64,000 bases of DNA, from IMG/VR virus record IMGVR_UViG_3300031952_000006; one strand, 5' to 3'. Below are positions 1 to 40,935 of the stretch, piece by piece. This DNA comes from a virus. Lineage: Duplodnaviria > Heunggongvirae > Uroviricota > Caudoviricetes. The position numbers were made by a program, and so were the translations under genes. Each line of letters starts with the position of its first letter. The first letter of the stretch is position 1. The notes under the pieces were generated by a model. It worked only from the letters and a program-made list of their open reading frames with translations. It was not told the origin of the DNA and did not search any database.

Positions 1-249
1 GAAGCAATGATGTGTGGACTTGTTACAGTAAGCTACAAATCCCATGATGTTGGTATGTTTATACGTAACGGAATTAATGGTTTTTATTCTGAAGACCCTA
101 AAGAATTGGCTGAATTTATAATATTTCTTTCAGAGGATAGCAGTGCGTTCAAAAAAATTGCTAAAGAAAGTTATAAAACGGCAATAGACATATTCAATAA
201 CGACCGATACTTGCATGATTGGCAAGAAACAATTTTCAGAATTATCTGA
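1..249 (+). CDS. 3' fragment of a glycosyltransferase (GT-B/GT4-like C-terminal half); gene begins upstream of the window
   Basis: Reading frame is open from nt 1. The C-terminal pattern resembles retaining GT-B glycosyltransferases. It sits at the head of the sugar-modification cluster. Confidence 0.4.
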   Translation, partial: EAMMCGLVTVSYKSHDVGMFIRNGINGFYSEDPKELAEFIIFLSEDSSAFKKIAKESYKTAIDIFNNDRYLHDWQETIFRII

Positions 250-282
250 TAAAAATAGATATTGGATAAGAAGGAGATAAAA

Positions 283-1005
283 GTGTCACACAACAATTCT
301 GAACACTATTCTAAAAAAAGCATAGATGCTTTGTCTGGAGCAAAATTTGATTTCTATGTAAAAACATTATATAATACATACAAATCAATAGCAGGAGCTA
401 TGCAAAAAAAGAATCCGACAGCGATAGGAGATGATACATATGTACTAGCAACCAATTCTGAAGAAATGCTTTATATTGCGCGTTATATTTATCAAACACA
501 TCAATTGGCTGTTCCTGGAGATATCATGGAGTGCGGTTGCTTCCAAGGATATTCTTCATGCTGCCTAAGTTGGGCTGTATCTTATTTTTCTAAGAAACTT
601 GTCATAGCTGATTCTTTTGAAGGACTACCTGATGTAGGTCATAAGGTATATAAGCCGCATGAATATAAGGGTGATTTTGATATTGTTAAGAATAATATAA
701 ATACATACGGAGTTCTGCAAAACGTTGAATTTATAAAAGGCTGGTATGAAGACTCTCTCAAAGGGTTTTCTAAAAAATTATCCATACTATGGATGGATGT
801 GGATCTCAAAGAATCAACTATGGATGTATTAAATAATGTGTATGCTTGCCTTGATGAAAGAGGTGTTATATTATCGCATGAGTATAAAGATAATTTAGAA
901 ACATCAGAAGTATACGAAGCTATCCAAAAATTCTTTTTTGATAAAAAGATAAAAATAAAAATAGAGAAACTGCATAACCATTTAGGTGTTATCTATACAG
1001 TGTAG
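283..1005 (+). CDS. TylF/MycF-family SAM-dependent sugar O-methyltransferase
   Basis: VPGDIMECGCFQGYSS and ILWMDVDLKEST match the macrocin-O-methyltransferase family signature. The ORF-track start at 262 is TTG. The GTG at 283 has an AAGGAG SD about 7 nt upstream. Confidence 0.65.
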   Translation: MSHNNSEHYSKKSIDALSGAKFDFYVKTLYNTYKSIAGAMQKKNPTAIGDDTYVLATNSEEMLYIARYIYQTHQLAVPGDIMECGCFQGYSSCCLSWAVSYFSKKLVIADSFEGLPDVGHKVYKPHEYKGDFDIVKNNINTYGVLQNVEFIKGWYEDSLKGFSKKLSILWMDVDLKESTMDVLNNVYACLDERGVILSHEYKDNLETSEVYEAIQKFFFDKKIKIKIEKLHNHLGVIYTV

Positions 1006-1043
1006 TCACCTCAAAATAAAAATCCAATTGGAGGGCATGATTA

Positions 1044-1802
1044 ATGGCAAACGAAAGGTCCTTGGTATTTAAAAATAGAGAACATGGTAGATACTGGTGG
1101 TTTAAGGCAGAGGGAGCAACATATGTTCCTCCAGTGTACTCATTCTTATCTGACGCTGAATGGAAAGTTATGGATGAATGGTATACAGAAACTGATGAAA
1201 AGAATCTTGCGGCAGAATGTAATGTATCTCTTATGTGTGTTCTTCAGGGATTTATTATGGGAAGTATAGTAAAACGTGTGGTGCAGTTTGGAACATCTCA
1301 GGGATACTCTGCGTTGTTAATAGGATTTATGCTACGAAAAATGGGATTAAAAAATTCTTTTGTTACTGTGGACAACAATAAACAAGCAAATGAATTTACG
1401 AATAGATATGTAGAAAAAGCCGGGTTAGCGGAATATATAAAAGTTGTAACAGCAGATTCTGCTGATCCTCGTTTACTAGAATATTGTAAACACCATATGA
1501 ACGGAAATCCTCAAATTATTGTAATCGATTCGTCGCATCAATATAAACATACGTTGCAGGAGCTTGAACTATGGTATCCCTATTTGTCAGCAAATGGTCT
1601 TATTTTTCTGCATGATACCAGTAAAAAAGCTATTGATTATGATTCTACACAAGCAGGGGGTGTGCAGAAAGCTCTTAACGAATGGTCTGAAAAAAATAAT
1701 ATAAATTATATAAATATAAATAAGCTAGCAGAAGTTCATACTAAAGCTTCTGAGTTGACATATCTCGATGGATGTGGATTGGGAATAATTCAAAAAATTT
1801 AA
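1044..1802 (+). CDS. class I SAM-dependent methyltransferase (CmcI/Methyltransf_24-like)
   Basis: GGAGGG SD. Glycine-rich VVQFGTSQGYSALLIG, acidic VDNNK after beta2, IVIDSSHQY...FLHDT. Confidence 0.5.
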   Translation: MANERSLVFKNREHGRYWWFKAEGATYVPPVYSFLSDAEWKVMDEWYTETDEKNLAAECNVSLMCVLQGFIMGSIVKRVVQFGTSQGYSALLIGFMLRKMGLKNSFVTVDNNKQANEFTNRYVEKAGLAEYIKVVTADSADPRLLEYCKHHMNGNPQIIVIDSSHQYKHTLQELELWYPYLSANGLIFLHDTSKKAIDYDSTQAGGVQKALNEWSEKNNINYININKLAEVHTKASELTYLDGCGLGIIQKI

Positions 1803-1815
1803 GGAGATTTCTTTT

Positions 1816-2514
1816 ATGATCAACAATATAACTTTAGCTACTCCTTATTACAATGCGGCAGATGTACTTCCATTACAATTGGAATATTGGAATGCATACA
1901 CTGACAATATAAAAAAGAATCTTAAGATTGTTCTTGTGGATGATTGTTCTAATGATGCACAAAAACTCTCAAACGTATTCAAAAAAATACCTGATTTGGA
2001 TATAGAAATATATGAAGTTCTTGAAGACATACCATGGAATGATGGCGGTGCTGGAAATTTAAGTGTATTTGTAACTAAAACAGACTGGGTTTTAAGAACA
2101 GATATAGACTACCTCGTACCAACTGATACTATGGAATACATTTTAAATACTGAATTTGATCCCACAAAATATTATACGTTTGATGCTATGTATCATCACA
2201 ATAAGCAAAAAATAGGTATTCATCCAAGTACACTTCTTATAACTAAAAAATTATTTATTGATTCGGGGGCGTACGATGAAGATTTTACGGGAAATCATGG
2301 ATATACTGACAATTTCCTCAGATTAAGATTAGATAACATAGCAAAAAATAACCATCTGAATAATGTTTATATCGAAGGAATATTGAATGGGTCAACTCAC
2401 AAATTAATACGAAATGATACAATTAATTACGATCTTCTTATAAAAAAAATAAATAATGGATTACCTATACCGACATCCCATTTAAGATTCAAATGGAAAA
2501 AGGTAGATTTATGA
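1816..2514 (+). CDS. family-2 glycosyltransferase
   Basis: N-terminal TPYYNA...LKIVLVDDCSND (GT2 DXD region). AAGGAGA SD. Confidence 0.7.
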   Translation: MINNITLATPYYNAADVLPLQLEYWNAYTDNIKKNLKIVLVDDCSNDAQKLSNVFKKIPDLDIEIYEVLEDIPWNDGGAGNLSVFVTKTDWVLRTDIDYLVPTDTMEYILNTEFDPTKYYTFDAMYHHNKQKIGIHPSTLLITKKLFIDSGAYDEDFTGNHGYTDNFLRLRLDNIAKNNHLNNVYIEGILNGSTHKLIRNDTINYDLLIKKINNGLPIPTSHLRFKWKKVDL

Positions 2515-3038
2515 AACTTCATATAGCTTGCGGAGAAAGATATTATACAGGGTGGGTTAATATAGATATTGGTCAATACAAAGTCGATTTGCACCATGAT
2601 GTAACAAAACCATTTCCTTTTGAAAAGGATAGCGTCGATGTTGCGTACTGTGAACACTTTATCGAACACCTTACCGTTGAAGAATGTAAAAATATGTTGA
2701 ATAACTGCTATGCTGTTTTGAAGCACGGAGGTGTTTTTAGAATAGCAACATTTGATTTGGATGAAGTTATCCAAAAGTATGTTACTGATTGGAAGGATCA
2801 GTGCTGGATTCCAAGCCACGCATTTATAAAGAATAAAGCTGAAATGCTCAATATAGCTTTTACTTGGTGGGGGCATCACTGGCTTTACAATGAAGAAGAA
2901 CTTATTCGTCGTATAAATGATTCAAATTTTAAAAGCAACATTCGAAAAGCTACATTGGGAATGAGCGAAAATAAAGATTTATGTAATGTGGAAACACGAT
3001 TGAATTCAACACTAATAATAGAAGCAATAAAAAATTAA
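2511..3038 (+). CDS. SAM-dependent methyltransferase (Methyltransf_11/23-like)
   Basis: LHIACGERYYTGWVNID (motif-I-like) and VDVAYCEHFIEHL. The ORF-track start 2493 overlaps the upstream gene. ATG 2511 overlaps its stop (ATGA coupling). Confidence 0.5.
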   Translation: MKLHIACGERYYTGWVNIDIGQYKVDLHHDVTKPFPFEKDSVDVAYCEHFIEHLTVEECKNMLNNCYAVLKHGGVFRIATFDLDEVIQKYVTDWKDQCWIPSHAFIKNKAEMLNIAFTWWGHHWLYNEEELIRRINDSNFKSNIRKATLGMSENKDLCNVETRLNSTLIIEAIKN

Positions 3039-3042
3039 AAAT

Positions 3043-3672
3043 ATGTCCAATAAAATATATGTATACGGTTGTGGCGGATTTGGTCAAGAAGTCACTGCAC
3101 TTGCTGAAAGAGTTGGATATACTGTAGTTGCATTTATCGATGATGCATACAAATTTAAAACATACGAAGGAAAACCTGTTTTAGATATAAATTCAATAAA
3201 AAATACGAGTAATATAACCATTGGTATAGGAAATCCAAAAGTAAGATTTAATTTATATAGCAAATTGACAAATCTTGGATTTGAACACTTTCCAAATCTC
3301 ATAGATCAAACAGCCGTTATTATGAAAAATTCAATTGTTGAAATGGGCTCTATTGTGTGCGCTGGAGTAGTAATTACAACTAGTGTCTATATAGAAAAAT
3401 TTTCCATAGTTAACATAAATGCAACTATCGGCCACAGAACAGTTGTAGGATGTTTTAGCAATATAGCACCCTTAGCAGCATTAAGCGGCGATTGTCACAT
3501 AGGAAAACAATGTTTTTTAGGAACAGGATCAAGCATACGAGAAAAAATAAAAATAGGTAACAATATTATAGTAGGAGCTGGTTCTGTGGTAGTAAATAAC
3601 CTTATATATGATAACTCCATATATGTTGGTAATCCAGCTAGATTTAAAAAAAAATTAGGAGCAACAAAATGA
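3043..3672 (+). CDS. NeuD/PglD-family sugar N/O-acyltransferase (left-handed beta-helix)
   Basis: N-terminal Rossmann-like KIYVYGCGGFGQEV plus C-terminal hexapeptide repeats (IGHRTVVG, IAPLAALSG, IGKQCFLGTGSSI, IGNNIIVGAGSVV). Confidence 0.75.
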   Translation: MSNKIYVYGCGGFGQEVTALAERVGYTVVAFIDDAYKFKTYEGKPVLDINSIKNTSNITIGIGNPKVRFNLYSKLTNLGFEHFPNLIDQTAVIMKNSIVEMGSIVCAGVVITTSVYIEKFSIVNINATIGHRTVVGCFSNIAPLAALSGDCHIGKQCFLGTGSSIREKIKIGNNIIVGAGSVVVNNLIYDNSIYVGNPARFKKKLGATK

Positions 3673-4742
3673 TACCTTTTTACAAACCAAGTATAGATAT
3701 AGATATGGTTGAAGAACGCGTAGTAGACGCTCTTAGAACAGGTCAAGTTACCAATTGGGGACTTTATACAAAAGATCTTGAGTCAGAAATAGGAGAATAT
3801 CTTGGAAAGCCTGTTGTGCTTACTGCGTGCGGAACCCACGCACTAACTTTTGGATTGCTTGCCCTTGCTCATTATGGCTTGATTCCAAAGAATGCAAGGG
3901 TGCTTGTACCATCATTTACATTTTATGCGAGTGTCCATGCAATCATCTGGGCAAATATGATTCCAGTATTCTGTGACATACATCAAGATACATATACTAT
4001 GGATATTGACTCAGCTGTTGGACAGTTTGATGCTGTAATGCCTGTCAATGTTTTTGGTGTTCACTATGATATTGATTATATTAAGAAAAAAACTAATAAA
4101 CCAATAATAGGTGATAATAGTCATGGATTCGGAGGCTCTTTTTCTAGTAAGAGAAATGGAACATTAGAAGATGTATCTTGCTTTAGCTCAAGTATTACAA
4201 AACCGATGCAAACAATTGAAGGCGGTATTCTTGCTGCCAATGCTAATATAGTTGAATTTGTACGAGATTTTAGAAACTGGGGGAGTCCCCACGGTCAGTA
4301 TGATTGTAAGTACGCCGGGCAGTGGTCAAAGATAACAGAAATAAACGCAATAGTTGGTTTGAGTAGTATGATGCATCTGTCAACCTCAGTTGATAGAAAA
4401 AATGAAATTGCCGATATGTATAAAGAGAAATTAAACTCATATGTTGAATTTCAAGTAATCCCTGAAAATATAAAAACAACATACAAAGATTTTTCTATTT
4501 TGTTCACAGAAAATTCAATACGGGATAAAGTGAGTAGTATTCTTGATGAAAATAAAATAGGAAATAAAAAATATTTTTATCCTCCCGTACATAAAATGCA
4601 GTGCTTTGGCAATACCTACTTATCTGAAAAACTTCCTATTACAAATAATATCTCAGACAGAATACTTTGTTTACCAATGTATGATTCTATTACCGAAGAA
4701 GACATTGATCATATTTGCAAAACAATTATCTCTGCGCTCTAA
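3669..4742 (+). CDS. DegT/DnrJ/EryC1/StrS-family PLP-dependent sugar aminotransferase
   Basis: IPFYKPSI...ALRTGQVTNWG...LTACGTHAL, and SFSSSITKPMQTIEGG (Schiff-base Lys context). Start overlaps the previous stop. Confidence 0.8.
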   Translation: MIPFYKPSIDIDMVEERVVDALRTGQVTNWGLYTKDLESEIGEYLGKPVVLTACGTHALTFGLLALAHYGLIPKNARVLVPSFTFYASVHAIIWANMIPVFCDIHQDTYTMDIDSAVGQFDAVMPVNVFGVHYDIDYIKKKTNKPIIGDNSHGFGGSFSSKRNGTLEDVSCFSSSITKPMQTIEGGILAANANIVEFVRDFRNWGSPHGQYDCKYAGQWSKITEINAIVGLSSMMHLSTSVDRKNEIADMYKEKLNSYVEFQVIPENIKTTYKDFSILFTENSIRDKVSSILDENKIGNKKYFYPPVHKMQCFGNTYLSEKLPITNNISDRILCLPMYDSITEEDIDHICKTIISAL

Positions 4743-4766
4743 TAAATTATATACGAGTAAAAATAT

Positions 4767-6521
4767 ATGTGTGGAATAGCAGGAATATTATACAAAAAGT
4801 CTGGAATGCTTAATACGCAGCAAGTATTGACTCAGTTTCAGAAAGTACTAAAACACCGTGGGCCAGATGATGAAGGAATTCATATTGATTCAACCTTTGG
4901 TTGCGCCCATGTACGTTTATCTATTGTTGATATTTCTGGCGGAAAGCAACCAATGTACACAGATGACTCCAAAAAAATAGGTATTGTGTACAATGGAGAA
5001 ATATATAATTATAAAGAATTAAGAGATACTCTTATACAAAAAGGATGTCGGTTCAAAACTACTTCTGATACCGAAGTAGTTTTACGGTTATACGAAACTT
5101 TTGGAAAAGATTCATTTGAAATGCTTAATGGCATGTTCGCTTTTTGTATTTGGGATAATCATGCTGATGCTATATATCTTGTAAGAGATCATATGGGGAT
5201 AAAACCACTCTATATATATGAAGATAATAATGTACTTATATTTTCTTCAGAAATTAAAGCTATTCTCAGCGTTCCAAACATTGATCTTTCTCTAGATGTT
5301 TATGGATTTCAAGATTACTTAATGTTTCGGTATATGCATGCTCCCTGTACGTTGTTTAAGAACATCTATCGTTTGACTGCGGGAACTTATATAGAATTCA
5401 AAGATATGCGTGCAGCAGCTCATGTATATTGGGATGTAGTATACAATCCTGATGAAACAACAACTATAGAGAATTTCAAAGAAGAAATACTATATACACT
5501 TGATACAATTATACAATCTCAACTTATGGGTGAAGTTCCTATTGGAATGCTTCTGAGCGGCGGTGTAGATTCAAGTATTATATCATACTTCATTCATAAA
5601 AACAATTCCAACCTCAAAACTTTTAATATTGGGTACCCTGAAGTAAATGAATTTGAATTTTCCCGTGAAGTTGCTAACCAACTCAGATTAGATCATATTG
5701 AAGTCGTAACAACACCTGATTCGTTCGTTAAGGATTTCCACAAAATAGCTATGAATCTTGATGAGCCTCTAGCTGATCCCGCGAGCTTTCCCTTATTTGT
5801 TTTGTGTGAAGAATTAAAAAAACATGTTACTGTTGTTCTATCTGGTGAAGGGGGAGACGAACTATTTGCAGGATATCCACAATATGGTAGAACCATGAAA
5901 ACCCAGGGAGAGGACAAATGGAAATTTGCATTATTCTTATCAAATAGCCATTACTATCTTAATTCTCATAAATTTATGCTAGATACGTCTCATGTAATGC
6001 AAGCACAAGAAAAATATAAAGAATACTTTGATAGAAACGGTGTGTTGAATGGAATGATGGCCTACGATCTTAAAACGTGGGTTCCTGAAGATTTGATGAT
6101 GAAGACTGATAAAATTATGATGGCGCATTCCCTAGAAGGCAGATTTCCTTTTCTAGATAAACGAATAATAGAGTTAGCTCATAGAATACCTGAAAAGTAC
6201 AAATTTAATGGTGTAACAACAAAATGGATTTTAAAAGAAGCCATTAAAGGAAAAATTCCAGAAAAGATAATTAATCGTCCAAAAATGGGATTTACTGTGC
6301 CAGTTGCAACAATGCTTGAACGAATGAAGCCGATAATATTAGAAACGTACTATGTGGCTAAATCAACTGAGCTAAGAAATGTTTTGAATATAGAAGAACT
6401 GCTTAATAATGCAGTAAGATACTATTCAAAGGATGCAACTATTTCTTCAACAAATGTGTGGACTCATTTTATATTGTTATACTGGTTCACGCGAGTATTT
6501 CCTGAATTTAAGAGGTTATAA
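4767..6521 (+). CDS. asparagine-synthetase-like glutamine amidotransferase (PseA/WbpS-type sugar amidotransferase candidate)
   Basis: MCGIAGI gives an N-terminal nucleophile Cys2. PP-loop LLSGGVDSS. 584 aa. Confidence 0.8.
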   Translation: MCGIAGILYKKSGMLNTQQVLTQFQKVLKHRGPDDEGIHIDSTFGCAHVRLSIVDISGGKQPMYTDDSKKIGIVYNGEIYNYKELRDTLIQKGCRFKTTSDTEVVLRLYETFGKDSFEMLNGMFAFCIWDNHADAIYLVRDHMGIKPLYIYEDNNVLIFSSEIKAILSVPNIDLSLDVYGFQDYLMFRYMHAPCTLFKNIYRLTAGTYIEFKDMRAAAHVYWDVVYNPDETTTIENFKEEILYTLDTIIQSQLMGEVPIGMLLSGGVDSSIISYFIHKNNSNLKTFNIGYPEVNEFEFSREVANQLRLDHIEVVTTPDSFVKDFHKIAMNLDEPLADPASFPLFVLCEELKKHVTVVLSGEGGDELFAGYPQYGRTMKTQGEDKWKFALFLSNSHYYLNSHKFMLDTSHVMQAQEKYKEYFDRNGVLNGMMAYDLKTWVPEDLMMKTDKIMMAHSLEGRFPFLDKRIIELAHRIPEKYKFNGVTTKWILKEAIKGKIPEKIINRPKMGFTVPVATMLERMKPIILETYYVAKSTELRNVLNIEELLNNAVRYYSKDATISSTNVWTHFILLYWFTRVFPEFKRL

Positions 6522-7258
6522 TGAATACACAAAATATATTATTTACCGGAGGATCTGGACTTCTTGGTAAAGAAATGAAAAAAGTAATACCAGATGCACT
6601 ATTTCCATCCTCAAAAGATTTTGATGTCACTGATGTTGACGGAATGAATACTACACTTGCAGTAATAAATCAAGTTGGAGACCCTATAAAAACAATGGTT
6701 CATGCAGCAGCATTCGTATCCCCTCCAAAAATTGAACAAGATCCTATGAAAGCATTAGCAGTTAATATTATTGGAACATCTAATATTGTTACGGTATGCC
6801 AGCAGTACAATATTCGCCTTGTTTATATATCTACTGATTATGTTTTTAGCGGGGAAAAGGGAAACTATGGTGAAGAAGATCCCATATATCCAGTAAATAA
6901 ATATGCTTGGAGTAAGCTTGGTGGGGAGTGTGCAGTTAGATTATATGATAAGCACGTCATAATCAGACTTTCTTTTGGACCTACTGAATTTCCCTATGAA
7001 GGAGCGTTCGTTGATCAATTGACTTCTCGAGAGCCTGTAAATGAAATAGCTCAGAAAATAGCAAAAATAGCAAAAAGCGATTTTCTCGGAATAATGCATA
7101 TTGGTTCTAAAGGAAGAACCGTGTATGATTATGCGAAATATGTCAGTCCAGAAAAACCAATAAAAGAAATATCTATAAAAGATATGAAAACAAAAGTTCC
7201 AAGAGATACTTCTCTCAATACCAATAAATTTGATACATTCATAGCAGGAGGTTGGTAA
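6521..7258 (+). CDS. RmlD-like NAD(P)-dependent sugar reductase (short form)
   Basis: ILFTGGSGLLG and YISTDYVFSG. Start overlaps the previous stop (TAATG). Confidence 0.6.
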   Translation: MNTQNILFTGGSGLLGKEMKKVIPDALFPSSKDFDVTDVDGMNTTLAVINQVGDPIKTMVHAAAFVSPPKIEQDPMKALAVNIIGTSNIVTVCQQYNIRLVYISTDYVFSGEKGNYGEEDPIYPVNKYAWSKLGGECAVRLYDKHVIIRLSFGPTEFPYEGAFVDQLTSREPVNEIAQKIAKIAKSDFLGIMHIGSKGRTVYDYAKYVSPEKPIKEISIKDMKTKVPRDTSLNTNKFDTFIAGGW

Positions 7259-7437
7259 TGATTGACGATTACTACTGTGAACATTGTAAAAAGATATTTG
7301 AATACAAAAAACCCTATGGTGAGGAAAAATTTCCAAATCACCCACAGTGTCCTGTGTGTAATACAAGAAAAACACGCAGAAAAATATCATTCAACGCTAT
7401 TATTCCAGATGATTTTAAATCTGTAAATAGTAGATAA
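7252..7437 (+). CDS. small zinc-ribbon protein
   Basis: CEHCKK...CPVCN. AGGAGG SD. Confidence 0.35.
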   Translation: MVMIDDYYCEHCKKIFEYKKPYGEEKFPNHPQCPVCNTRKTRRKISFNAIIPDDFKSVNSR

Positions 7438-7458
7438 AAACAAAACAAGGAGTATTTT

Positions 7459-8442
7459 ATGAAACTCATGGTTTTTGGCGGCGCAGGATACGTTGGAAGT
7501 GCCTTGGTTCCTGTATTATTGGATCACGGGTATGATGTAACTGTTATTGATCTACTGTGGTTTGGAAATCGCCTTCCAAAAGAAGTCAATGTTATCCAAA
7601 AAGATTTATTTTCTTGTACCGAGAAAGACTTAGAAGGATTTGATCAATGCATTTTCCTCGGAGGTTTATCAAATGATCCGATGAGTGAATTTGACCCAGT
7701 TAGAAGTTTTATTTACAATGCCTCGCTTCCGTCATATCTCGCATACATATCCCGACAAGCAGGAGTTAAGAGATTTATTTATGCATCGTCTTGTTCCGTG
7801 TACGGCTATACGGTTGATAAATTGTTCGATGAGACATCGAAAATTTCCTGCTTTTATCCGTATGGAATCGGAAAGCTTCAAGGAGAGAAAGGAGTCATGC
7901 ATCTTCAGGAGGATGACTTTTCAGTAATTTGCCTCAGAAAAGGAACCGTCTCAGGTTACAGCCCCCGACTTCGCTTAGATCTCATCGTAAATACCATGGT
8001 TCTCAATGCACTTACCAAAGGAGTGGTTACAATTAGTAATCCAGCTATCTGGAGGCCAGTTTTGTCGATGCAAGACTGTGTCTCAGCCTATCTCAGGAGC
8101 ATCCAAGCAAACTATTCCGTTTCTGGAGTTTTTAACATCGCTTTTGATAATTTTACTGTGGGGGAAGTTGGCTACACTGTAAAAGATGTTATTGAAAAGA
8201 GATATCCAGACAGACACATAAAACTTGATGTTAAGAATGTTCAAGATGTAAGAAATTACAAAGTAACCATCGAAAAAGCACGAACAACTCTGGGGTTTCA
8301 TCCAAGATACTCTGTTGCTGACATTGTTACTGAGTTGCTAGACAAGTGGGATACAATTCTTCCGCTAATCGACAAAGACGAATCCTATAACATTCGTATA
8401 TGCAAGAAACTTTTCTCTGATAAAGAAATTCGGATAGCGTAG
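7459..8442 (+). CDS. NAD-dependent sugar epimerase/dehydratase (extended SDR)
   Basis: VFGGAGYVGS, YASSCSVYG, YGIGK (YxxxK). AAGGAG SD. Confidence 0.75.
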   Translation: MKLMVFGGAGYVGSALVPVLLDHGYDVTVIDLLWFGNRLPKEVNVIQKDLFSCTEKDLEGFDQCIFLGGLSNDPMSEFDPVRSFIYNASLPSYLAYISRQAGVKRFIYASSCSVYGYTVDKLFDETSKISCFYPYGIGKLQGEKGVMHLQEDDFSVICLRKGTVSGYSPRLRLDLIVNTMVLNALTKGVVTISNPAIWRPVLSMQDCVSAYLRSIQANYSVSGVFNIAFDNFTVGEVGYTVKDVIEKRYPDRHIKLDVKNVQDVRNYKVTIEKARTTLGFHPRYSVADIVTELLDKWDTILPLIDKDESYNIRICKKLFSDKEIRIA

Positions 8443-8452
8443 GTATATTGAA

Positions 8453-9442
8453 ATGCTCACTAAAACAGTAAGTAACCCTGAAATTGCAGAGCGTCTGAAG
8501 AAAGATCCCTTTATCACTCTGTGGAAAAATAATTATGCAGAAAATCAAGCAAAGGGATACTTGTCTACCGAGAAGTCCCGTCCGCTACTGTTTATAAAAA
8601 ATACCAGACCGTATGCAAATTTACCAGTAGTCATTGTTGCTGCTGGACCTTCCTTGGATAAGAACATTCATCTCTTAAAAGAATATCAAAATAATTGCAT
8701 CATTCTTTGTGCGGATGTCATCCTCTTTAAATTACTACAGAACGAGATCAAACCGGATTTCGTTGTTAATATTGATCCGCATGAGTCTCTCAAAAAATTC
8801 TGGAATAATATTGATACTACAGAATTCACTCTGGCCTGTCCGACAACAACCAACCCTCGAACACTGGAAGCATGGAAAGGGCATGTCTATTTTTTCAATC
8901 AATCTGATCTTGATAAATCTCCAAAAGGAGAGGCGCTTAAGAAACTTATAAAACCAACAGAAGGGTGGGGTGTCCTTTCCAACAAATTCTTTGTTGGTGC
9001 GACAATGTTTCAGTTTTCTACCTATCTCAGTCCATCAGCTGTAATCTTAATTGGGCACGATTTTTGCTACACCGACGATAAGGCCTTCTGTGATGGTTTC
9101 CTTGATATAAAAATTCATCATGACGAGCATCCCATTGGATCAGAAGAACATAGATATATGATCGAAAAACTTAAAGCAGAAGAGATACATAGAGATGTCT
9201 CAATTAATCTTTCACCAACGGAGACCGTATGGACTTCTCAAACGCTACATCTTTATAAGAACACATTAGTAGGATTAATCAATACAGCTAAGTTGAAAGT
9301 TATTAATGCAACTGAAGGCGGAATTCTGACAGAAATAGAAAAAATGTCATTTAAAGATAGCCTCGAAAAATTCTGTCAAAATCCTATTACTAAGTTCGAT
9401 ACGTTCTCTATGCAAAAAAGAAAACACAAAAAGAGACGATAA
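8453..9442 (+). CDS. MptE/DUF115-like protein (core shared with Maf-type motility-accessory-factor glycan transferases)
   Basis: NLPVVIVAAGPSLDKN...CIILCADV pattern of the 6-hydroxymethylpterin-diphosphokinase-MptE-like/Maf core. Last gene of the sugar cluster. Confidence 0.5.
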   Translation: MLTKTVSNPEIAERLKKDPFITLWKNNYAENQAKGYLSTEKSRPLLFIKNTRPYANLPVVIVAAGPSLDKNIHLLKEYQNNCIILCADVILFKLLQNEIKPDFVVNIDPHESLKKFWNNIDTTEFTLACPTTTNPRTLEAWKGHVYFFNQSDLDKSPKGEALKKLIKPTEGWGVLSNKFFVGATMFQFSTYLSPSAVILIGHDFCYTDDKAFCDGFLDIKIHHDEHPIGSEEHRYMIEKLKAEEIHRDVSINLSPTETVWTSQTLHLYKNTLVGLINTAKLKVINATEGGILTEIEKMSFKDSLEKFCQNPITKFDTFSMQKRKHKKRR

Positions 9443-9536
9443 TCAACCTTAAAAATAGCACCTATCAAGTTATTTTTGATGTTAGCGACCTACCAAGTGT
9501 TCTTTAATCTGAAATTATTGCTATGAGAAAATATTA

Positions 9537-11735
9537 ATGATAGACCCCATAACCAATTTTGTAATAGCTTCTACAACACTTGAAGACAACTTAACCAAGT
9601 TTACGTTCAGTTTTACTAAACCTACGGGTGACATCGGTGGCTATTATTTATTCATGAGCTCTACAGGTGTCGCCTATATTAGCGTAAAAACTCGTATAGA
9701 TGCGTCACAACCACAAATAGATGAAGATCGAACGTATGATATCGATGGTGTATCGTATTTTGAATATACTACCGAATCTGATTATCATGACGGAAAAATG
9801 CTGTATTTTAAAATGCAAGCTCTCTCTGCTGCTCGAGAATTATCGGTTTTTTCTTCAGTTGAAATAGGATATTCTTATCCATCACAACCATTAAATCTTT
9901 TTGTACAATATAATGGAATTGATGCTACTCTTACATGGGATGAGATTGATTTTACAAACAATAAAAATTCAACATTCACTAATTACAATATTTATCGAGA
10001 TCTTGCTATACCATTAAATGGTACAACATTTGATTCTACTACAAATATCCTATCAAATACTCAATTTACTACAGGCAGTCTCATTTGGGTAATAGATATA
10101 TTTAAGAAATCCCAGTGGTTTGGCGCAGTTGTAGAAGAAGGAGTGTTTGATCTTACATCAACAGGACTTATTGGATACAGTGATACTTCATCTACATATA
10201 CACCAAATATAGATAACCTGAAAATATATATCGATTATAAAAACCCTGCTTTTATTGGAACATCTTCTACAGGACTTTATACGGATACAGCATTTATATT
10301 TGATCGATATTATATTTATTCAATTCGTTCAGCAGGATTGGGGGTGCGCCTTAGCTTTAGTACTCCTTATATGTGTTATGCAATTGACACTACAAATGCG
10401 TATCCATATTTAAGATCGATTGAGAACTCATCGACAGAAATTTTAAATGATCCTTATTGGAAAACATTAAAAGCTGTTCTTATCGATAAGAATTTTTATG
10501 ATAAAACACCGTTTGCTATTCCTTATTCTAAGGATACCACTTACAATCTAAAAGGTTATTTAGGCGTAAGTGAATGCAAATTTGATGTATTTGTTAATGA
10601 TATATACAGTTTTACTACATCAACTGGAGTTTACGGAGAATTTGAGATAAATTATATTTTTCCTAAAGGAAATATTTCAATGGTATTTCAAGCACGGGAT
10701 AAATATAATATAAAATTTTCTCGTAAAAGCGCTCCATATAGCATCAGAACCCTGAATTTGTATACATGGTATGCTGCAGTACTCGGCAGTCAGTATAAAC
10801 AAATTGATATTGAAGCGACAGCGATTAAATCAGATGTTTCTATAGAAACATGTCGCTATTCATATTTTGAAGACAGATTTTCTCCCTTTGTAGGATTGTA
10901 TAAAGAAGGAGATGAAGCTGAAGCTAAATTTACCAGTCTTGCTTCAACAAATTTCAAAGCATTTGAATATGCATCATATGATAAGTCTCTCCAAATGATG
11001 TTTGATTCATTCCAGGAAAACCTACTTGAACTTGATCATTATGAAATTCATTATAATATGAATTTATATGACACACAGAAAACAGCGTATACTTTCACAG
11101 CAACTTCTACTGGACTTGGAAGAGGTGACTATTGGTATGGTATAGCAGCATGTACACGCGATGGAGAAGAAACATCAGTAATTACCCTACGAGTGGATAG
11201 ACGATGGTGGCCAGAACCTTATATGAATGAAAACGTAATTATGTGGGATTATGTGTATGGAGCTGAATTTTATAAAATATATAGAGGAACCACCGAAGCA
11301 GACCTTTATTTTCTAACATCAACTGGAATGAATGTTGCTGTTGATATTAATGGAGAAACTCCCAATCCTGAAATTACACCAGTTCCATATAATTTTACAG
11401 ATATGTTGGAACCCGTTAACGTTAAACTGTATGATAAATACGGAGTAAATAATTTGTTCCTGAGACTTAAAAAAACATCGTCATTGATTATTCTTTTGTT
11501 TGGAGCAGGAAATAATGTTATTGCTGAGTTTGACTTGCAAAGAATTTTGTATCTTCTGAAAAAATTCATCCCACCTGAACTAAAATATTCGATAGTTTTT
11601 TCAAATGATACGAAGGTTATCTTATATCCAGATGGAATTGAAATCAATCTGGTCGAACCTGATCCAATATACGCTTATTATGATTTATCGTATTATTATA
11701 ACCCAAGTCTGGAAGTTGTTGAGGTCTACTCGTGA
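9537..11735 (+). CDS. large virion structural protein, tail-fibre/receptor-binding-like (732 aa)
   Basis: S/T/N/Y-rich beta-type composition with six [ST]STG motifs. First of six co-oriented giant ORFs. Confidence 0.5.
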   Translation: MIDPITNFVIASTTLEDNLTKFTFSFTKPTGDIGGYYLFMSSTGVAYISVKTRIDASQPQIDEDRTYDIDGVSYFEYTTESDYHDGKMLYFKMQALSAARELSVFSSVEIGYSYPSQPLNLFVQYNGIDATLTWDEIDFTNNKNSTFTNYNIYRDLAIPLNGTTFDSTTNILSNTQFTTGSLIWVIDIFKKSQWFGAVVEEGVFDLTSTGLIGYSDTSSTYTPNIDNLKIYIDYKNPAFIGTSSTGLYTDTAFIFDRYYIYSIRSAGLGVRLSFSTPYMCYAIDTTNAYPYLRSIENSSTEILNDPYWKTLKAVLIDKNFYDKTPFAIPYSKDTTYNLKGYLGVSECKFDVFVNDIYSFTTSTGVYGEFEINYIFPKGNISMVFQARDKYNIKFSRKSAPYSIRTLNLYTWYAAVLGSQYKQIDIEATAIKSDVSIETCRYSYFEDRFSPFVGLYKEGDEAEAKFTSLASTNFKAFEYASYDKSLQMMFDSFQENLLELDHYEIHYNMNLYDTQKTAYTFTATSTGLGRGDYWYGIAACTRDGEETSVITLRVDRRWWPEPYMNENVIMWDYVYGAEFYKIYRGTTEADLYFLTSTGMNVAVDINGETPNPEITPVPYNFTDMLEPVNVKLYDKYGVNNLFLRLKKTSSLIILLFGAGNNVIAEFDLQRILYLLKKFIPPELKYSIVFSNDTKVILYPDGIEINLVEPDPIYAYYDLSYYYNPSLEVVEVYS

Positions 11736-13906
11736 GAAAAAGACAGTTTGGTACTAAACGGTTAATATACGCAAGTGACCATAACACTGCTCAAACCTAT
11801 GGCGAGCTAAATACTCGTGAAGTAGCAGTGGATGGTGGGATTAAAGGTATTATTTATGGCGGGGTACTTATACCAAATACCGAAATTGAATATACAATAA
11901 TCCTTGAAGAAACTGTAGCAAGAACACTTGCTGGTGAAAGAATAGTAGTACCTTCCTCATCTAACCCTGTTGTAAATATTTTTATAAAACCATCTATCGA
12001 TCCAGGATTCGGAAACGAAGTTTGGGTAACAGCCTATATTGAATATACATATCAATTAGGAGAATTGGATATAGATGGCGACAACATACCCTATTACAAA
12101 GATTACCAAAATGGTTTTCAGATCGGAACTGTGCAAGGCGTAATTGCTCCGATAGGCACTGCAATAAAACCAAACATACCTTATGGAGCTGTTCTTCTTT
12201 GTGATATCCTGTACAACGCAAATCTCTATCTTACTGGAGCGATTCAGCAATCTGATATAAATACAGCTCGGCAAGATAGATTTGATAGCCAATCTTTTGT
12301 CAATCTTCTTGTAACAGGTACTGCCGATATATATGGTGTCATTATTGCACGAAGCGGTATCGATATGATCGGTACTAACTTCTTTAATGTGTCTGATCCT
12401 GTAATAGGAAGCGATGTTGGCGATAGAGATTATAATGATGTTCGCTACATTCTAAAGTCCGGTGATACGATGACAGGTACGCTCAATGTGCCAGATCTTA
12501 ATGTCAGCGCCAGCATGACTATTCAAAATCTTACTGCCAATGGCAATCTTCTTGTTGGGGGAAGCAGCGTATTCAGTGACAATGTTAATATTGCTGGAAA
12601 TTTGGCTGTTAACTCCGGTGGAGTATCCATTGGCCAGGATTTACGTGTCATCGGATCAATTGAGGGAAAAAGCGTTATTATACCGTGGCAAACAGCAGTA
12701 GATTACACTATTGGAGAAGTAGTTGTTTTTGAAGAAGGAATTTATAAATGCAAGGTAGATCATACCTCAACTGATTTCCTACTTCAAATTGTAAATTGGG
12801 AATCAATTGGTGGGGGCGGCGGAACAACGCACCGAGTGACTATAATAGATCATGGATTTGTTGTTGGAGATGTTTTAAGATATGATAGCCATGCTGATCC
12901 CAATGGATACACCAAAGCTAAAGCTGATAATCCTCACACACTGGGTCAATTTGTTGTTATTCGCATTCTTGATGCGGATAATTTTATAATATCGAGTGGC
13001 GGTTACTTTGAAGATACCAGCGCCACTCTTAATCTCATACCAAATACATGGTACTACTTATCTGATTCAACAGTTGGATTACTTACAGTAACAGAACCTC
13101 CGATATCAAATCCAATATTGTATGCTGTAGCAGCGCATGAAGCATATGTTTTTATATTCAGACCGGCAGTTGGTGCGATGCTTGCTGTTGATGAATATAT
13201 TGCAGAAACAGGACAAACAAAATTTGAATTATCTGTATTACCCATTCACCAGGATTATGTAACTGTTTCTATTGATGGATATGTCCAAAGCAAAAGTATA
13301 TATACATTTTTCTCTTCAACTGGAATAGTTGCCGGAATTCAATTTAACACACCCCTATCTGGTGGAGAAGAAATTAGATTTCAAATAGTCAGCAATGTTT
13401 TTTCTGAAGCTGGCGCAAATCTCGTAACTGATACTATTACTGCAACAACTGATGGTCAATTTACTGTTACAATGTCACGAGTACCTATCTCCAAAGAATA
13501 TATATTGGTATCAATTGATGGTGTTTTTCAACACAAAAGCGCGTTTGATTTCACTGACACGGTATTAACATTTGCAGATCCTCTTCTTACTGGAAACGAA
13601 GTTCAAATTATACATGTAGTTGGTATGAATATAGCTCTCGATCCTGCAGTAGTAAATTCTTTTGTTATCAATTCGTCAACGGGACAAGTCAGTATGAAAA
13701 ATCTTTCTGTTTCTAACGATGCTGGCGCGGGATTAGCAAATATAACAACATTTACTAATGCAAAAGACAATATATTGAGCACGGGTACAGGTTCTATAAA
13801 ATTGAAAGGTACGGGGACAACACAAGATAGTGCTGGTTGGCTTAAGGTATATATCGGAACTACTGCTTGCTATCTCCCCTATTTTACTAATATAACAGGC
13901 GTGTAG
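11732..13906 (+). CDS. tail-fibre-like protein (724 aa)
   Basis: Overlaps upstream ORF by 4 nt. Gly/Asn/Ser-rich shaft-like repeats (NVSASMTIQNLTANGNLLVGGSSVFSDNVNIAGNLAVNSGGVSIG). Confidence 0.5.
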   Translation: MRKRQFGTKRLIYASDHNTAQTYGELNTREVAVDGGIKGIIYGGVLIPNTEIEYTIILEETVARTLAGERIVVPSSSNPVVNIFIKPSIDPGFGNEVWVTAYIEYTYQLGELDIDGDNIPYYKDYQNGFQIGTVQGVIAPIGTAIKPNIPYGAVLLCDILYNANLYLTGAIQQSDINTARQDRFDSQSFVNLLVTGTADIYGVIIARSGIDMIGTNFFNVSDPVIGSDVGDRDYNDVRYILKSGDTMTGTLNVPDLNVSASMTIQNLTANGNLLVGGSSVFSDNVNIAGNLAVNSGGVSIGQDLRVIGSIEGKSVIIPWQTAVDYTIGEVVVFEEGIYKCKVDHTSTDFLLQIVNWESIGGGGGTTHRVTIIDHGFVVGDVLRYDSHADPNGYTKAKADNPHTLGQFVVIRILDADNFIISSGGYFEDTSATLNLIPNTWYYLSDSTVGLLTVTEPPISNPILYAVAAHEAYVFIFRPAVGAMLAVDEYIAETGQTKFELSVLPIHQDYVTVSIDGYVQSKSIYTFFSSTGIVAGIQFNTPLSGGEEIRFQIVSNVFSEAGANLVTDTITATTDGQFTVTMSRVPISKEYILVSIDGVFQHKSAFDFTDTVLTFADPLLTGNEVQIIHVVGMNIALDPAVVNSFVINSSTGQVSMKNLSVSNDAGAGLANITTFTNAKDNILSTGTGSIKLKGTGTTQDSAGWLKVYIGTTACYLPYFTNITGV

Positions 13907-13913
13907 GGCAACC

Positions 13914-16900
13914 ATGGACAAAATAGTATTCGATGCCAAAATACAAAATCTCTATAGTCCTGATTATGAGTATCTTCAGAATACTATAGATACTGAAATA
14001 AAGAAATCATTCAGACAGAATATTCAAAATCCTTTTGTCAGTGCTATCATTAAAGGATTTAATCTTCAAGCAAGTCTGACTGATCCTTCAAAAATTTTAG
14101 TATATCATGAAACCGGATACGGTGGTGTTATTACATCTACCGGTGAGCTTATTGAATCATCAAATAATATCGATCTTGTCGCACCTGCGGATAGTACACC
14201 TGGTGTAGTAAATTATGCATATATTCGGATATATTCTGTCTATGGTACATTTAATAAAAAGAATGAGGTAGTAGAAGAAGGTGTTCAGAAAAATATAGAT
14301 TTATATAACTATACAAAAACGTATGATCGTCTTATTACAAAATGGGAAATTAAAGTTTATACACAGAGCCAGTATCTTGCTTTAACTGACGCTGAAAAAG
14401 CTGAATTGCTTGGTCTTGGTTCTTTTGTTGCAAACGGAACGAATCCTATCACAGAAATAAGTACCGCTGGTCGTGTTTATACTCGCTCATTCATACAACA
14501 AAATTCTATAAAAACTGGAATGATTTCAAGCACGGGTTTTGTTATTACGCAACATAATGTTTCCACCTCAGAACAGACTGACGATCATTACGCAGGAACT
14601 CCCGTTTATCTCCAAGATGATGTTAATGAATTACGTACTCTTGTTCGTGAAATAAAAGGAACAGCAAATTACGATGATTTCATAGATAACTCGCTTCTTA
14701 CATCTGACTCATCGGCCAATAGATTGCATGGTAACGGTGTTCTCGCAGATGAATGGGATGAGCTTGAAGTAATTCCAAACAGTACTGGGCTTGCTGTTGT
14801 TGTTAAAGCTGGTAAAGCAATCGTTCGTGGTGGTGTATCTCACGTTCTTGAAAATGAAACAAAGCTTCTTATTCTTGAACCACAGGTTAACTATCAAGTT
14901 GGCGATTGGGCAACAAGAACGGGTGAAGAACATATTGTTGGGCACAAACCAACATCATTCTCTCTTGCTTATCAGAATGTTGGTAATCTCAAAATAACTG
15001 ACATCTATAATGAACCCTATCCAGAAGGTTTTGACGAAGGCATTGACTATATAGTTGATTATGAAAATGGTATTGTATATATTCCATTAATAGGAAGCAG
15101 GATAGCTGAAGAGAGAGTCAAGTGTTACTATCAATGGGGATATACTCGATACGACCTTGTTGAAATAGGTACAGGAAGTGATGTTAAATTAAAAACGGGT
15201 GTTGCCGGACCAAATGCGCAACCAGAAGCACCGGACACAAATTATCTTTTATTATATCAATTGAAAGTAGATCCTTTTGATAGAACAATACCGCTTGATC
15301 ATATAATTGATACAAGAGTATTTTCTCAATATATAAGAAATCTTTATGAAATAAATTCAACAGCAGAAAGTAAATATAATTTTACTATAAACAAGGCAAC
15401 ATTTCTTACATCATCAGGAGAATACGATAGTTTACATGCGCAATGGAGTATAACAACATACCGTGATGAAGATGTAGCAATTACCTCTACTGGCGGTACT
15501 AGAATATTGACAGCCGTTAGTTGTCTTCCTAACGATGAAGTTTGGCTTATTGTTGATAAAACTCCCTGGACGAATGCTATTACAGTAGAGCTTAATCCTG
15601 TTGCTGGATATCAGGAAGTAGGGCTTGAGGTAGCATCAACTGATACGTCTGGTTTGTATGAATACTCCGACTATTATTTTAAATTAAATGGAACAGAGTA
15701 TAAAACGACAACTTCCAATAGTGTTACCTATGAAGCAGTAGCTGCATTAATGCAAAGTGTTCTTTCCGGGTATCAGTACAATGTAAACTTTATAGTAAAT
15801 GATATTCGAGTTTCTGATAGCTATTACATAGGTACCGATTCCACAATTAATTTAAACCACTGTGCTACAAATTCTGGGGACTTGTTTCATAGTCTTACCG
15901 GATTTACTGCATTTGAACTTCCCTTTAGCAATTACCAAAAACTTGGTTTAACAACCTCAACAGGCGCTGCTTCTGGATTGGAAGCAAACACAACATATTA
16001 TTTTAAAGTTAATTCTGTAGAATATAGAATTCAAACTGCTACAAGTTTAACAATTAATGGCATAACAATATTAATAAATTTAGCAATAGCTGATGCTGGA
16101 TTTAGTGCAGTGGTAGACACAGATGATATTAAAATTTCATCTGAAACAGGAGCAGTCGCTCTTGATTTTTCAAATGGAGATTTATTTACCCATCTTACAG
16201 GTTTTTCTGATTTTGAACCTTCTGTTGATGGAGTCCTCGCAGTAGACACGTACCATGACATTGATCTTTCGTATAAAGACCATGTAGAAAAATTTCCAAT
16301 ACTTATTGAAGATAAACTTTCTGAAGGATTTCATAATATTAGATTAACTGTTAATTCCGTTAATGAAACTTTTACATTCTATAGTTTTTTAAGCGGTCGT
16401 TGCGATATTCTATATGATAAAGGTTTTCTTTATAGTGCAGATGAGACAGAACCGTATAAAGTTACGAACTACCGTGGTGTTCACTCAAAATTTTATGTAG
16501 ATCCAACAAACACAAGAAAAGCTCTTATCTACCTCGATAATAAAGAAATTTGCAGTTCTACTGGATTCTATCAAAACTATTGGGATGTTGAACAAGCATA
16601 TCCAGTAAGTAGAGTAGATAATCAAAATATTGTAACGGGCGGTACGCTGGCAATAACTGATTATATATTACCTACTGTTGACAATACAATGACATATACA
16701 GTAGGTAGTACAACAGTTACATGTAACTCTACAAGCATAATCAGCCTCCAAAATTATGACAGACTTTTTGCAACAACATGTGTTCCTTTGGGAGCATATG
16801 TGACTGGAATTACAGATTTAACTCATTTTGAAATGTCAGCCCCCGCAATTGAAAGTGGATCTAACATAGTAACAACAATAGAACACTTCACCAATACAGT

Positions 16901-17978: not shown

Positions 17979-17990
17979 AGGTTTCTGTTT

Positions 17991-34794: not shown

Positions 34795-34808
34795 ACATAA
34801 TTTCCCTA

Positions 34809-35174: not shown

Positions 35175-35183
35175 AACACACCG

Positions 35184-35378: not shown

Positions 35379-35415
35379 TAACTATGTCTCAACACTCCTA
35401 AAAAATCAATTCTTT

Positions 35416-35835: not shown

Positions 35836-35845
35836 ACTAATTCCT

Positions 35846-40910: not shown

Positions 40911-40935
40911 CTTTTTTAGATCAGTAAGGACTAAT

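Follow-up and report, generated by a model that had tools for sequence, protein, structure and literature searches.

The first 9442 nucleotides of the 64,000-nucleotide stretch analyzed here (the window; IMG/VR record IMGVR_UViG_3300031952_000006, a member of Caudoviricetes) are filled by sugar-modification genes that run directly into the tail genes of the virus. In our open reading frame (ORF) calls, 12 co-directional plus-strand ORFs occupy positions 1-9442, with intergenic distances of -22 to +38 bp, and 94 bp separate the last of them from the next ORF at 9537. That last gene encodes a 329-amino-acid (aa) protein, which we call mini-Maf for its likeness to the Maf flagellin glycosyltransferases. 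An exact-protein look-up gave four other contigs that carry the cluster. Contig L001, 99.85% identical to the window (11784/11802 bases), reaches ~9-10 kb farther upstream, and the sugar genes extend ~5 kb upstream of the window on it, as expected by an initial annotation made from the letters alone. The whole island, the window part plus the upstream part on L001, is ~16 kb and 15 genes long. Its predicted genes, with the Baseplate_J gene on its upstream side, are as follows.

L001 1424-2887: Baseplate_J protein (phrog_6 baseplate wedge, E 2e-28)
L001 6606-7229: RmlC-like 3,5-epimerase, 207 aa (PF00908; PDB RmlC 7pvi, E 6e-26)
1-249, plus strand: 3' end of a 658-aa GT2+GT1 fusion glycosyltransferase (weak GT1 C-terminal matches, E 1e-4)
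262-1005, plus strand: TylF-type S-adenosylmethionine (SAM)-dependent sugar O-methyltransferase (PF05711 TylF, E 9e-21)
1044-1802, plus strand: Methyltransf_24 / CmcI-rhamnosyl-O-methyltransferase-like methyltransferase (PF13578, E 8e-18; PF04989, E 2e-13)
1816-2514, plus strand: small GT2-family glycosyltransferase (PF10111, 30.9 bits, cut-off 27.3; PF00535, 23.6 bits, cut-off 23.3)
2493-3038, plus strand: class I SAM methyltransferase, 181 aa (Methyltransf_11, E 2e-7; Methyltransf_25, E 2e-6)
3043-3672, plus strand: VioB/PglD-type left-handed beta-helix N-acetyltransferase for 4-amino sugars (TIGR03570, 183.6 bits, cut-off 160.8)
3669-4742, plus strand: DegT/DnrJ/EryC1 pyridoxal phosphate-dependent sugar aminotransferase (PF01041, E 1e-65)
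4767-6521, plus strand: full-length glutamine-dependent AsnB-type amidotransferase (TIGR01536, 487.7 bits, over cut-off)
6521-7258, plus strand: RmlD-like short-chain dehydrogenase/reductase (SDR) 4-ketoreductase, 245 aa (PF04321, E 5e-33)
7252-7437, plus strand: four-cysteine zinc-ribbon protein, 59-61 aa (CEHC...CPVC motifs, weak Zn_ribbon matches)
7459-8442, plus strand: extended SDR sugar-nucleotide epimerase/oxidoreductase, SDR324 (PF01370, E 3e-25)
8453-9442, plus strand: mini-Maf, 329-aa DUF115/MptE-like protein (PF01973, E 1e-36, 126.5 bits, cut-off 34.6)

On L001, two small proteins precede Baseplate_J, which is followed by a 450-aa protein, a 749-aa double GT2, the 207-aa RmlC-like cupin and the 658-aa GT2+GT1 protein. 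The last of these is encoded in full at L001 7230-9206 (L001/L003, Pfam), and window 1-249 is its last 82 residues. Placement beside tail genes, which had been proposed from the downstream side, is real and is reinforced by the upstream flank: the island sits between Baseplate_J with the 450-aa protein and a protein with fibronectin type III (FN3) domains followed by fibre genes. This is where a myovirus normally passes from baseplate wedge to tail fibre. No gap exceeds 94 bp and there is no strand switch from the cassette into the tail genes. Glycosyltransferase genes lie inside a structural-gene operon, as they do in phage virion self-glycosylation systems. The GC content of the cluster is uniform with the rest of the window. 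Promoter-like sites are rarer across the cluster region than in shuffled sequence and terminator-like sites fall within the shuffle expectation, so internal transcription units cannot be claimed. Megablast of window 1-12000 against INPHARED gave no match.

The 12 contiguous genes of the initial annotation hold up, on a single strand and at near-zero spacing, and comparison to Pfam, NCBIfam and PDB agrees with its gene families (three methyltransferases, a GT2, an acyltransferase, DegT, AsnB, two SDRs and DUF115). The zinc ribbon was absent from its gene list, though it lies within the window cluster. The TylF gene has an alternative ATG start at 283, chosen by two gene calls. The methyltransferase at 1044-1802 matches the NF045824 rhamnosyl O-methyltransferase model at E 5e-9, far under the cut-off. 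The small GT2 barely clears the Pfam thresholds, and DxD motifs are present. The AsnB protein contains GATase_7 and Asn_synthase domains and matches phrog_16728 (E 2e-142); tblastn of it against phages gave just short unannotated fragments, probably contaminants.

The mini-Maf protein corresponds to the central catalytic domain of the Maf/PseD flagellin glycosyltransferases. It aligns to positions 227-481 of 640 in the PseD model NF050051 (E 5e-23; 81.6 bits, cut-off 670). The best PDB match by sequence is Magnetospirillum Maf 5mu5, at E 2e-6 from the single sequence and 2e-10 from a profile. An AlphaFold (AF2) model (pLDDT 92) has the same structure as its best fold match (E 3e-9, TMq 0.54 over 277 columns), followed by the archaeal MptE pterin kinase (M. 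jannaschii HPPK, E 2e-5) and then GT29 sialyltransferases. PF01973 includes MptE too, and HPPK is second-best by sequence profile (E 2e-5) as well as by fold. One might therefore take mini-Maf for an MptE-type pterin pyrophosphokinase or some other nucleotide-binding enzyme, and the cluster for a generic auxiliary sugar-metabolism island without virion relevance. The HPPK match, however, is confined to the N-terminal Rossmann part (TMq 0.37 over ~206 columns), the PF01973 core is nearer Maf than the MptE kinases by both sequence and fold, and the PseD domain match adds to this. The neighbours are all sugar enzymes, with no folate or pterin genes among them. We judge a kinase unlikely as an identity for this protein, and the accompanying view of the whole cluster highly improbable. 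Sequence and model together point to a Maf-like glycosyltransferase core.

That core is all that is present. Full three-domain Maf proteins are ~600 aa long, whereas mini-Maf is about half that size, without the N-terminal domain and without the C-terminal TPR/acceptor-binding domain, and no four-helix-bundle (GlfM-like) partner was recognized for it. Its neighbours are phage tail genes rather than flagellin or genes of cytidine monophosphate (CMP)-nonulosonate biosynthesis. Its C-terminus (window 9410-9439) is a polybasic KRKHKKRR, and KRKRxR appears in the consensus of 34 homologues. Against the GTDB species genomes, it has no more than 30% identity to any cellular homologue. There was no match by tblastn against INPHARED, no relative in an IMG/VR scan, and no PHROGs family; nor did we find literature on DUF115 or Maf in phages.

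Membership of the Maf family raises the prospect that mini-Maf glycosylates a host protein (flagellin, pilin or S-layer protein), altering motility or receptor availability, and a cellular short homologue with 28% identity does lie directly after the hook genes flgD/flgE. Yet the phage protein lacks the flagellin-binding domains and a GlfM-like partner, its synteny is strictly with phage tail genes, and the need for a large variable sugar cassette would be left unexplained. We regard a host protein as a very unlikely target.

The gene following mini-Maf encodes a 732-aa protein and begins a co-directional block of six ORFs at 9537-25088.

9537-11735, plus strand: 732-aa multi-FN3 tail-type structural protein, candidate acceptor and mini-Maf partner (structure model, synteny)
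11732-13906, plus strand: 724-aa putative tail-fibre protein (phrog_21488, E 1e-9; weak CBM_5_12 and DUF4183)
13914-17978, plus strand: 1354-aa giant putative fibre protein (no family, PDB or phage match)
17991-21854, plus strand: 1287-aa giant putative fibre protein, variable (no family match; patchy similarity in relatives)
21877-24306, plus strand: 809-aa protein, candidate receptor-binding protein (weak Laminin_G_3; two duplicated LamG/ConA-like modules)
24321-25088, plus strand: 255-aa protein, last of the block (no family match; serine plus threonine 18.8%)

The model of the 732-aa protein (pLDDT 84) has three N-terminal FN3 domains and then more beta-sandwich and helical parts, and its matches in BFVD are minor tail and tip-attachment proteins. 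On this model it looks like a structural tail protein rather than an enzyme. The 724-aa protein contains the motif KSGDTMTGTL, which we take to be typical of tail fibres; its homologues are lineage-specific only. In the 809-aa protein, residues ~100-175 and 330-380 are duplicated as ~465-540 and 740-790, the modules ending LamG/ConA-like, and a homologue occurs at 30% identity in one relative (L009). No tail-fibre hidden Markov model (HMM) scored over threshold among the six. The FN3, 724-, 1354- and 809-aa proteins had no match by tblastn against INPHARED, a PDB sequence search of the first three of these found nothing significant, and the FN3, 450-aa and giant proteins have no PHROGs family. 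Assignment of the six to the virion relies on a location downstream of Baseplate_J, on the FN3 fold and on weak hints of LamG, CBM5_12 and Phage_fiber_2. The initial annotation had the cluster abutting six giant serine/threonine-rich virion proteins. Six ORFs do follow, but the enrichment is modest (16.4-18.8% serine plus threonine versus 8.3-14.0% in the cluster enzymes) and typical of beta-rich fibres; mucin-like tracts are absent, the maximum in 40-aa windows being 33-38%.

The relationship of this locus to its relatives is that of a conserved frame with exchanged contents. Mini-Maf has ~75 metagenomic relatives at 37-89% identity and 290-365 aa, some on contigs up to 253 kb. Seven independent related loci were read (L005/6, L007/8, L009/10, L012, L013, L014 and L016), and all-against-all BLASTP covered six of them. 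The DUF115 gene (mini-Maf, 320-350 aa) and a multi-FN3 protein (705-853 aa) are present in 7/7 lineages and adjacent in 6/7. In L005/6, L007/8, L009/10, L012, L013 and L014, the DUF115 gene ends the sugar cassette, with the gene for the 732-aa homologue directly next and those for giant proteins after it. In L016, the mini-Maf and FN3 genes are three genes apart. Partial homologues of the 1354-aa protein come after the FN3 protein in all relatives. The 253-kb contig L012 has matching genes on the upstream side as well, with 51% identity in Baseplate_J and 53% in the 450-aa protein, so that the complete order of Baseplate_J, 450-aa protein, cassette, mini-Maf, FN3 protein and giant proteins is found in both L012 and the window lineage. 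The 732-aa protein has 45 homologues, all lineage-specific and many on the same contigs as DUF115 homologues.

Between these flanks, little is retained. Mini-Maf (47-75% identical) and the FN3 protein (42-74%) were found in 6/6 of the BLASTP-compared relatives, while the RmlC-like protein, the CmcI methyltransferase, the class I methyltransferase and the VioB-like protein have a counterpart in 0/6, the CmcI-like enzyme thus being confined to the window lineage within this comparison. A DegT counterpart occurs in L009 alone, at 23% identity. The TylF protein has a homologue in L005 at 82% identity, and the RmlD-like SDR is conserved in L005 and L009. Mini-Maf is the sole cassette gene conserved across all relatives. 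In place of the other genes, L007 and L014 have an NTP_transferase with HAD and methyltransferases, L009 has GNAT and GT1s, L012 has GT2+GT9 and a deaminase-like gene, L013 has radical-SAM/SPASM, a thiamine pyrophosphate (TPP) enzyme and DJ-1, and L016 has RmlA-like and RmlC-like genes. The cassettes of L007, L014 and L016 include NTP_transferase genes, unlike that of the window lineage. The locus is a conserved frame with swappable sugar content, O-antigen-like but flanked by phage tail genes.

Several details of the cassettes stand apart from this comparison. The zinc-ribbon ORF sits between the two SDR genes in three lineages (the window, L005 8819-8998 and L009 8829-9011) at 52-66% identity, and its product could assist the SDR pair or mini-Maf as an accessory protein. 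At L013 1-5900 (JGI Ga0504912_0000025), radical-SAM/SPASM, a second radical-SAM, the TPP-dependent enzyme and DJ-1/PfpI lie upstream of methyltransferases, GT2s and mini-Maf, a set that hints at branched-chain or otherwise unusual sugar chemistry. A LAGLIDADG-type homing-endonuclease-like ORF, a faint match, lies within the sugar cassette of L007/L008 (5605-6693) and is a possible agent of cassette exchange.

The chemistry encoded in the window lineage looks, from its sequence matches, like dTDP-6-deoxyhexose work producing O-methylated rhamnose-type and 4-acetamido-viosamine-type sugars. The nonulosonic flavour suggested in the initial annotation was not borne out: the best matches are RmlC, RmlD and VioB, and the search it had called for, for a NeuB-like synthase or a CMP-transferase, was negative over the ~10 kb upstream (L001) and in the larger ORFs scanned across the other 54 kb of the window. 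The region covered is 74 kb, ~10 kb upstream plus the 64-kb window, of a ~250-kb genome. The predicted RmlC 3,5-epimerase matches ~20 further RmlC structures besides 7pvi. The SDR at 6521-7258 scores 110 bits against the TIGR01214 RmlD model (cut-off 224), with the N-terminal ~150-180 residues alone aligning, matches PDB RmlD 3sc6 at E 8e-18, and has the motifs GGSGLLG, STDYVF and YAWSK (YxxxK). The acetyltransferase at 3043-3672 has VioB 7txp as its best PDB match (E 8e-34), then PglB, PglD and PerB, all 4-amino-sugar N-acetyltransferases; with the TIGR03570 cut-off exceeded and the DegT gene adjacent and overlapping, the two make a predicted VioB-type acetyltransferase and aminotransferase pair. 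The best NCBIfam matches of DegT are DesI and PseC, all far under the equivalog cut-offs, and a PDB comparison at E 1e-30, too strict a threshold, gave no match.

The remaining steps are less complete. The Rml/Vio pathways are represented in part: RmlC-like and VioB-like proteins are present, the RmlD-like protein scores under its model cut-off, and RmlA and RmlB are absent from the cassette and the window ORFs scanned. The SDRs match PseB/LegB-type 4,6-dehydratases at E 7e-7 to 8e-9, far under the NCBIfam cut-offs. SDR324 was considered as the missing 4,6-dehydratase and set aside; it has no TDE motif, and its best matches are of epimerase/oxidoreductase types. Its best PDB match is 6vo6 (E 2e-21), which we take to be C. 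jejuni Cj1427, a GDP-heptose C4 oxidoreductase, and its motifs are GGAGYVG and S...YGIGK (S...YxxxK triad). The most economical scheme would have two branches from a nucleoside diphosphate (NDP)-4-keto-6-deoxyhexose, one to a rhamnose-type 6-deoxy-L-hexose and the other to a 4-acetamido-4,6-dideoxyhexose. AsnB would put an amide or amidino group onto some carboxylate; its earlier likening to PseA is a loose analogy. The predicted sugar set resembles O-antigen, S-layer or Mimivirus-fibril chemistry. The island is neither a nonulosonate cluster, the synthase and CMP-transferase being absent from the 74 kb covered, nor a Wzx/Wzy-type locus.

Likeness to O-antigen loci leads to the question of whether the target is the host surface. 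Bacterial O-antigen and capsule loci also have conserved flanks around replaceable sugar content, drawn from Rml, Vio, DegT, AsnB/WbpS-like, GT2 and methyltransferase genes, and the island has RmlC/RmlD-like, VioB-like, DegT, AsnB, GT2 and methyltransferase genes in just such an arrangement. Soluble phage enzymes might then act on host O-antigen, capsule, teichoic-acid or S-layer intermediates linked to undecaprenyl pyrophosphate (Und-PP) and use the host flippase and ligase, with effects such as a superinfection block or less adsorption of progeny to debris. A crude Kyte-Doolittle scan with a 19-aa window found no transmembrane or hydrophobic segments in the cluster proteins, and the products all look like soluble enzymes. 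Most O-antigen glycosyltransferases are likewise soluble or peripheral, commonly without transmembrane helices, so the missing segments are compatible with action on host Und-PP-linked glycans. This is also the conventional reading of the large sugar-gene islands of big cyanomyoviruses (PMC12801897). Those of P-SSM2, S-SCSM1 and S-SCSM2R resemble ours in their many glycosyltransferases, NDP-sugar epimerases and RmlC, with function predicted. They differ in being read as host-surface modifiers, and PMC12801897 describes no tail-gene link and lists no Maf-like gene.

Against such a target, Pfam found no priming phosphoglycosyltransferase, Wzx, Wzy, polymerase or ABC exporter families in the cassette or in L001 upstream, nor is a ligase encoded in the cluster. 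O-antigen and capsule loci differ in the same way, the island having no Wzx/Wzy/Wzz, ABC transporter or initiating phosphoglycosyltransferase and being flanked by phage baseplate and tail genes. In every relative it is part of the late tail operon and not of some early or accessory island. We saw no temperate features, and GTDB genomes contain no prophage copies. Lastly, the sole invariant enzyme comes from a family that works in the cytoplasm, O-glycosylating a filament protein, and it is inherited together with a tail protein. We consider remodelling of the host surface unlikely, and take the conserved mini-Maf/FN3 pairing and the absence of export machinery to favour decoration of the phage's own fibres.

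The reading we prefer is cytoplasmic glycosylation of phage tail proteins, with mini-Maf as the constant step and the swappable cassette setting the type of glycan. We put its probability at roughly one half. Late in infection, an NDP-4-keto-6-deoxyhexose would be supplied by the host's RmlA/RmlB pool or by phage genes located beyond the region covered. The RmlC-like epimerase and RmlD-like reductase would convert it to a rhamnose-type 6-deoxy-L-hexose, and DegT and the VioB-like acetyltransferase to a 4-acetamido-4,6-dideoxyhexose, with decoration by the three methyltransferases and the AsnB amidotransferase. Six glycosyltransferase domains (GT2-GT2, GT2-GT1, GT2 and mini-Maf) would build an oligo- or polysaccharide in the cytoplasm, straight onto tail proteins, before or during assembly. 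Mini-Maf would perform the invariant step, most likely by attaching the first sugar to the protein, as Maf does on flagellin, and the cassette would fix a variable outer glycan, so that phages fall into 'glyco-types'. For Maf, an extra domain or the partner GlfM is normally required for acceptor specificity (bioRxiv 10.1101/2023.12.03.569772); the truncated enzyme therefore probably recognizes its acceptor differently, and that requirement fits a dedicated neighbouring partner. The adjacent FN3 protein would be the obvious candidate. More tentatively, a Maf core may have been domesticated as a tail-module gene that glycosylates the FN3 protein and possibly the fibres, with cassette exchange producing glycan 'serotypes' on the host-recognition apparatus.

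A number of points count against glycosylation of the tail. The acceptor is a candidate and the glycan a prediction from sequence, and the giant proteins are themselves putative fibres. Serine and threonine are only modestly enriched in the downstream proteins, as is usual in fibres. The domains with which Maf binds flagellin, at its N- and C-terminus, are missing from mini-Maf. Neither the RmlA nucleotidyltransferase nor the RmlB 4,6-dehydratase was found in the cassette of the window lineage or in the window ORFs scanned. O-antigen glycosyltransferases being so often free of transmembrane helices, soluble enzymes such as these might still act on host glycans. The characterized Maf enzymes all use CMP-activated ulosonic acids (PMC7874193; bioRxiv 10.1101/2023.12.03.569772); with no synthase or CMP-transferase in 74 kb, the donor would be host-derived or something different.

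A different substrate altogether would be the phage DNA. The phage appears to invest in DNA modification: a 388-aa PurZ-like protein is encoded at 61739-62905 on the plus strand (phrog_1211, E 1e-51), which suggests from sequence that adenine is replaced by 2-aminoadenine (a Z-genome). Virus-encoded glycosyltransferases that put diverse glycans on DNA have been described (Pyle et al. 2024, as cited in PMC12619734). Glycosyltransferases could therefore sugar-coat modified bases against restriction, alongside the PurZ-type pathway. However, no base hydroxymethylase occurs among the larger window ORFs scanned, and the cluster is in the tail operon, ~50 kb from the replication and nucleotide genes. 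We know of no DNA glycosyltransferase repertoire that includes multi-domain GT2/GT1 proteins, O-methylated 6-deoxy-amino sugars and a Maf-like enzyme. DNA hypermodification seems to us a remote prospect.

Among known systems, the Maf flagellin islands of Campylobacter, Helicobacter, Aeromonas, Shewanella, Clostridium and Magnetospirillum have the PF01973 catalytic core in common with mini-Maf. They are alike in nearby variable sugar-biosynthesis genes, methyltransferases and DegT/PglD-type enzymes, and, as predicted for the phage, in cytoplasmic glycosylation of a self-assembling filament protein without a lipid carrier. In Aeromonas, Maf adds a linking sugar and further glycosyltransferases (Fgi) extend a heterogeneous glycan (PMC7874193). 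Unlike these islands, no flagellin, Pse/Leg/Neu synthase or CMP-transferase was found around the phage mini-Maf. Its architecture and context both differ, and the phage island is not a member of the Maf-flagellin system.

In mycobacteriophages of the Che8/Corndog/Myrna type, capsid and tail-tube proteins are glycosylated (Freeman et al. 2023, as cited in PMC12619734). The likeness is that glycosyltransferases encoded by the phage act in the cytoplasm on its own virion proteins, as predicted for the island here. This is the only experimentally shown phage self-glycosylation that we found cited (PMC12619734, PMC11256854). The targets given there are the C-termini of capsid and tail-tube subunits, and about two putative glycosyltransferase genes are reported in Cluster F mycobacteriophages (PMC11256854), unlike a ~16-kb cassette with sugar-tailoring pathways, a Maf-like enzyme, a baseplate-fibre location and cassette swapping.

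Viral genes make the L-Rha, GlcNAc and 2-O-methyl-Vio4NAc found on Mimivirus fibrils (PMC8456856), and the island's O-methyltransferases and its RmlC/RmlD-like, DegT and VioB-like enzymes lead us to predict the same classes of sugar here. Mimivirus and the Megavirinae are alike in virus-encoded, host-independent making of bacterial-type sugars for surface fibres, and the content of the Megavirinae glycosylation cluster is clade-specific (PMC10117803). They differ in being eukaryotic giant viruses with unrelated, GMC-oxidoreductase fibre proteins, UDP-based pathways and no Maf-like enzyme, and we do not claim homology of the clusters. The known kind to which the island would belong is phage virion self-glycosylation; a domesticated Maf core with a serotype-like cassette at the baseplate-fibre junction would be new.

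The phage itself is of a large, probably jumbo, uncultured myovirus lineage. Distant relatives of its Baseplate_J protein in cultured viruses are in Bacillus phage G, virus Rctr197k (from a methane-oxidizing enrichment) and many haloarchaeal myoviruses, and one mini-Maf homologue is labelled Methanofastidiosum in a metagenome-assembled genome. Those haloarchaeal matches and that label hint at a possible archaeal host, but the labelled contig (L016) is simply the same phage type. Shine-Dalgarno motifs are found ahead of about half of the genes. Bacteroidota seldom use such motifs, which argues against a Bacteroidota host and is otherwise uninformative.

Elsewhere in the window, the gene directly after the PurZ-like gene (62907-63350, plus strand) encodes a 147-aa protein matching Tad3, a type I Thoeris inhibitor (PF25185, E 7e-37), and the HD_5 protein encoded at 29121-29795 is a possible DatZ-like dATPase. 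Five tRNA genes lie at 39792-45105 (plus strand), including a predicted suppressor tRNA at 45033-45105 with anticodon UUA reading UAA. Despite this, TAA is the commonest stop of the window ORFs (30/55), and the ORFs read normally under code 11. The only minus-strand island, at 34387-36166, has four ORFs and GC skew reversed to -0.218. Other recognized genes are ThiF-like (27574-28164), nitroreductase (33227-33748), SPFH/Band7 (47636-48517), HNH endonuclease (50901-51488) and a Dda-like helicase (53924-55531); most other larger window ORFs scanned have no Pfam family.

As far as we found, glycosylation of phage-particle proteins has been shown experimentally in just a few mycobacteriophages, with few genes. 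If the tail of this phage is glycosylated as proposed, virion glycosylation would reach large environmental myoviruses, and Maf-type enzymes would have acceptors besides flagellin. A compact Maf core with a defined candidate acceptor would also be of use as a glyco-engineering tool. Serotype-like cassette swapping would then act on the phage's own host-recognition organelle, adding a second, glycan-based layer to tail-fibre diversification, with a bearing on host range, resistance to proteases and decoys, and the recognition of phage particles.

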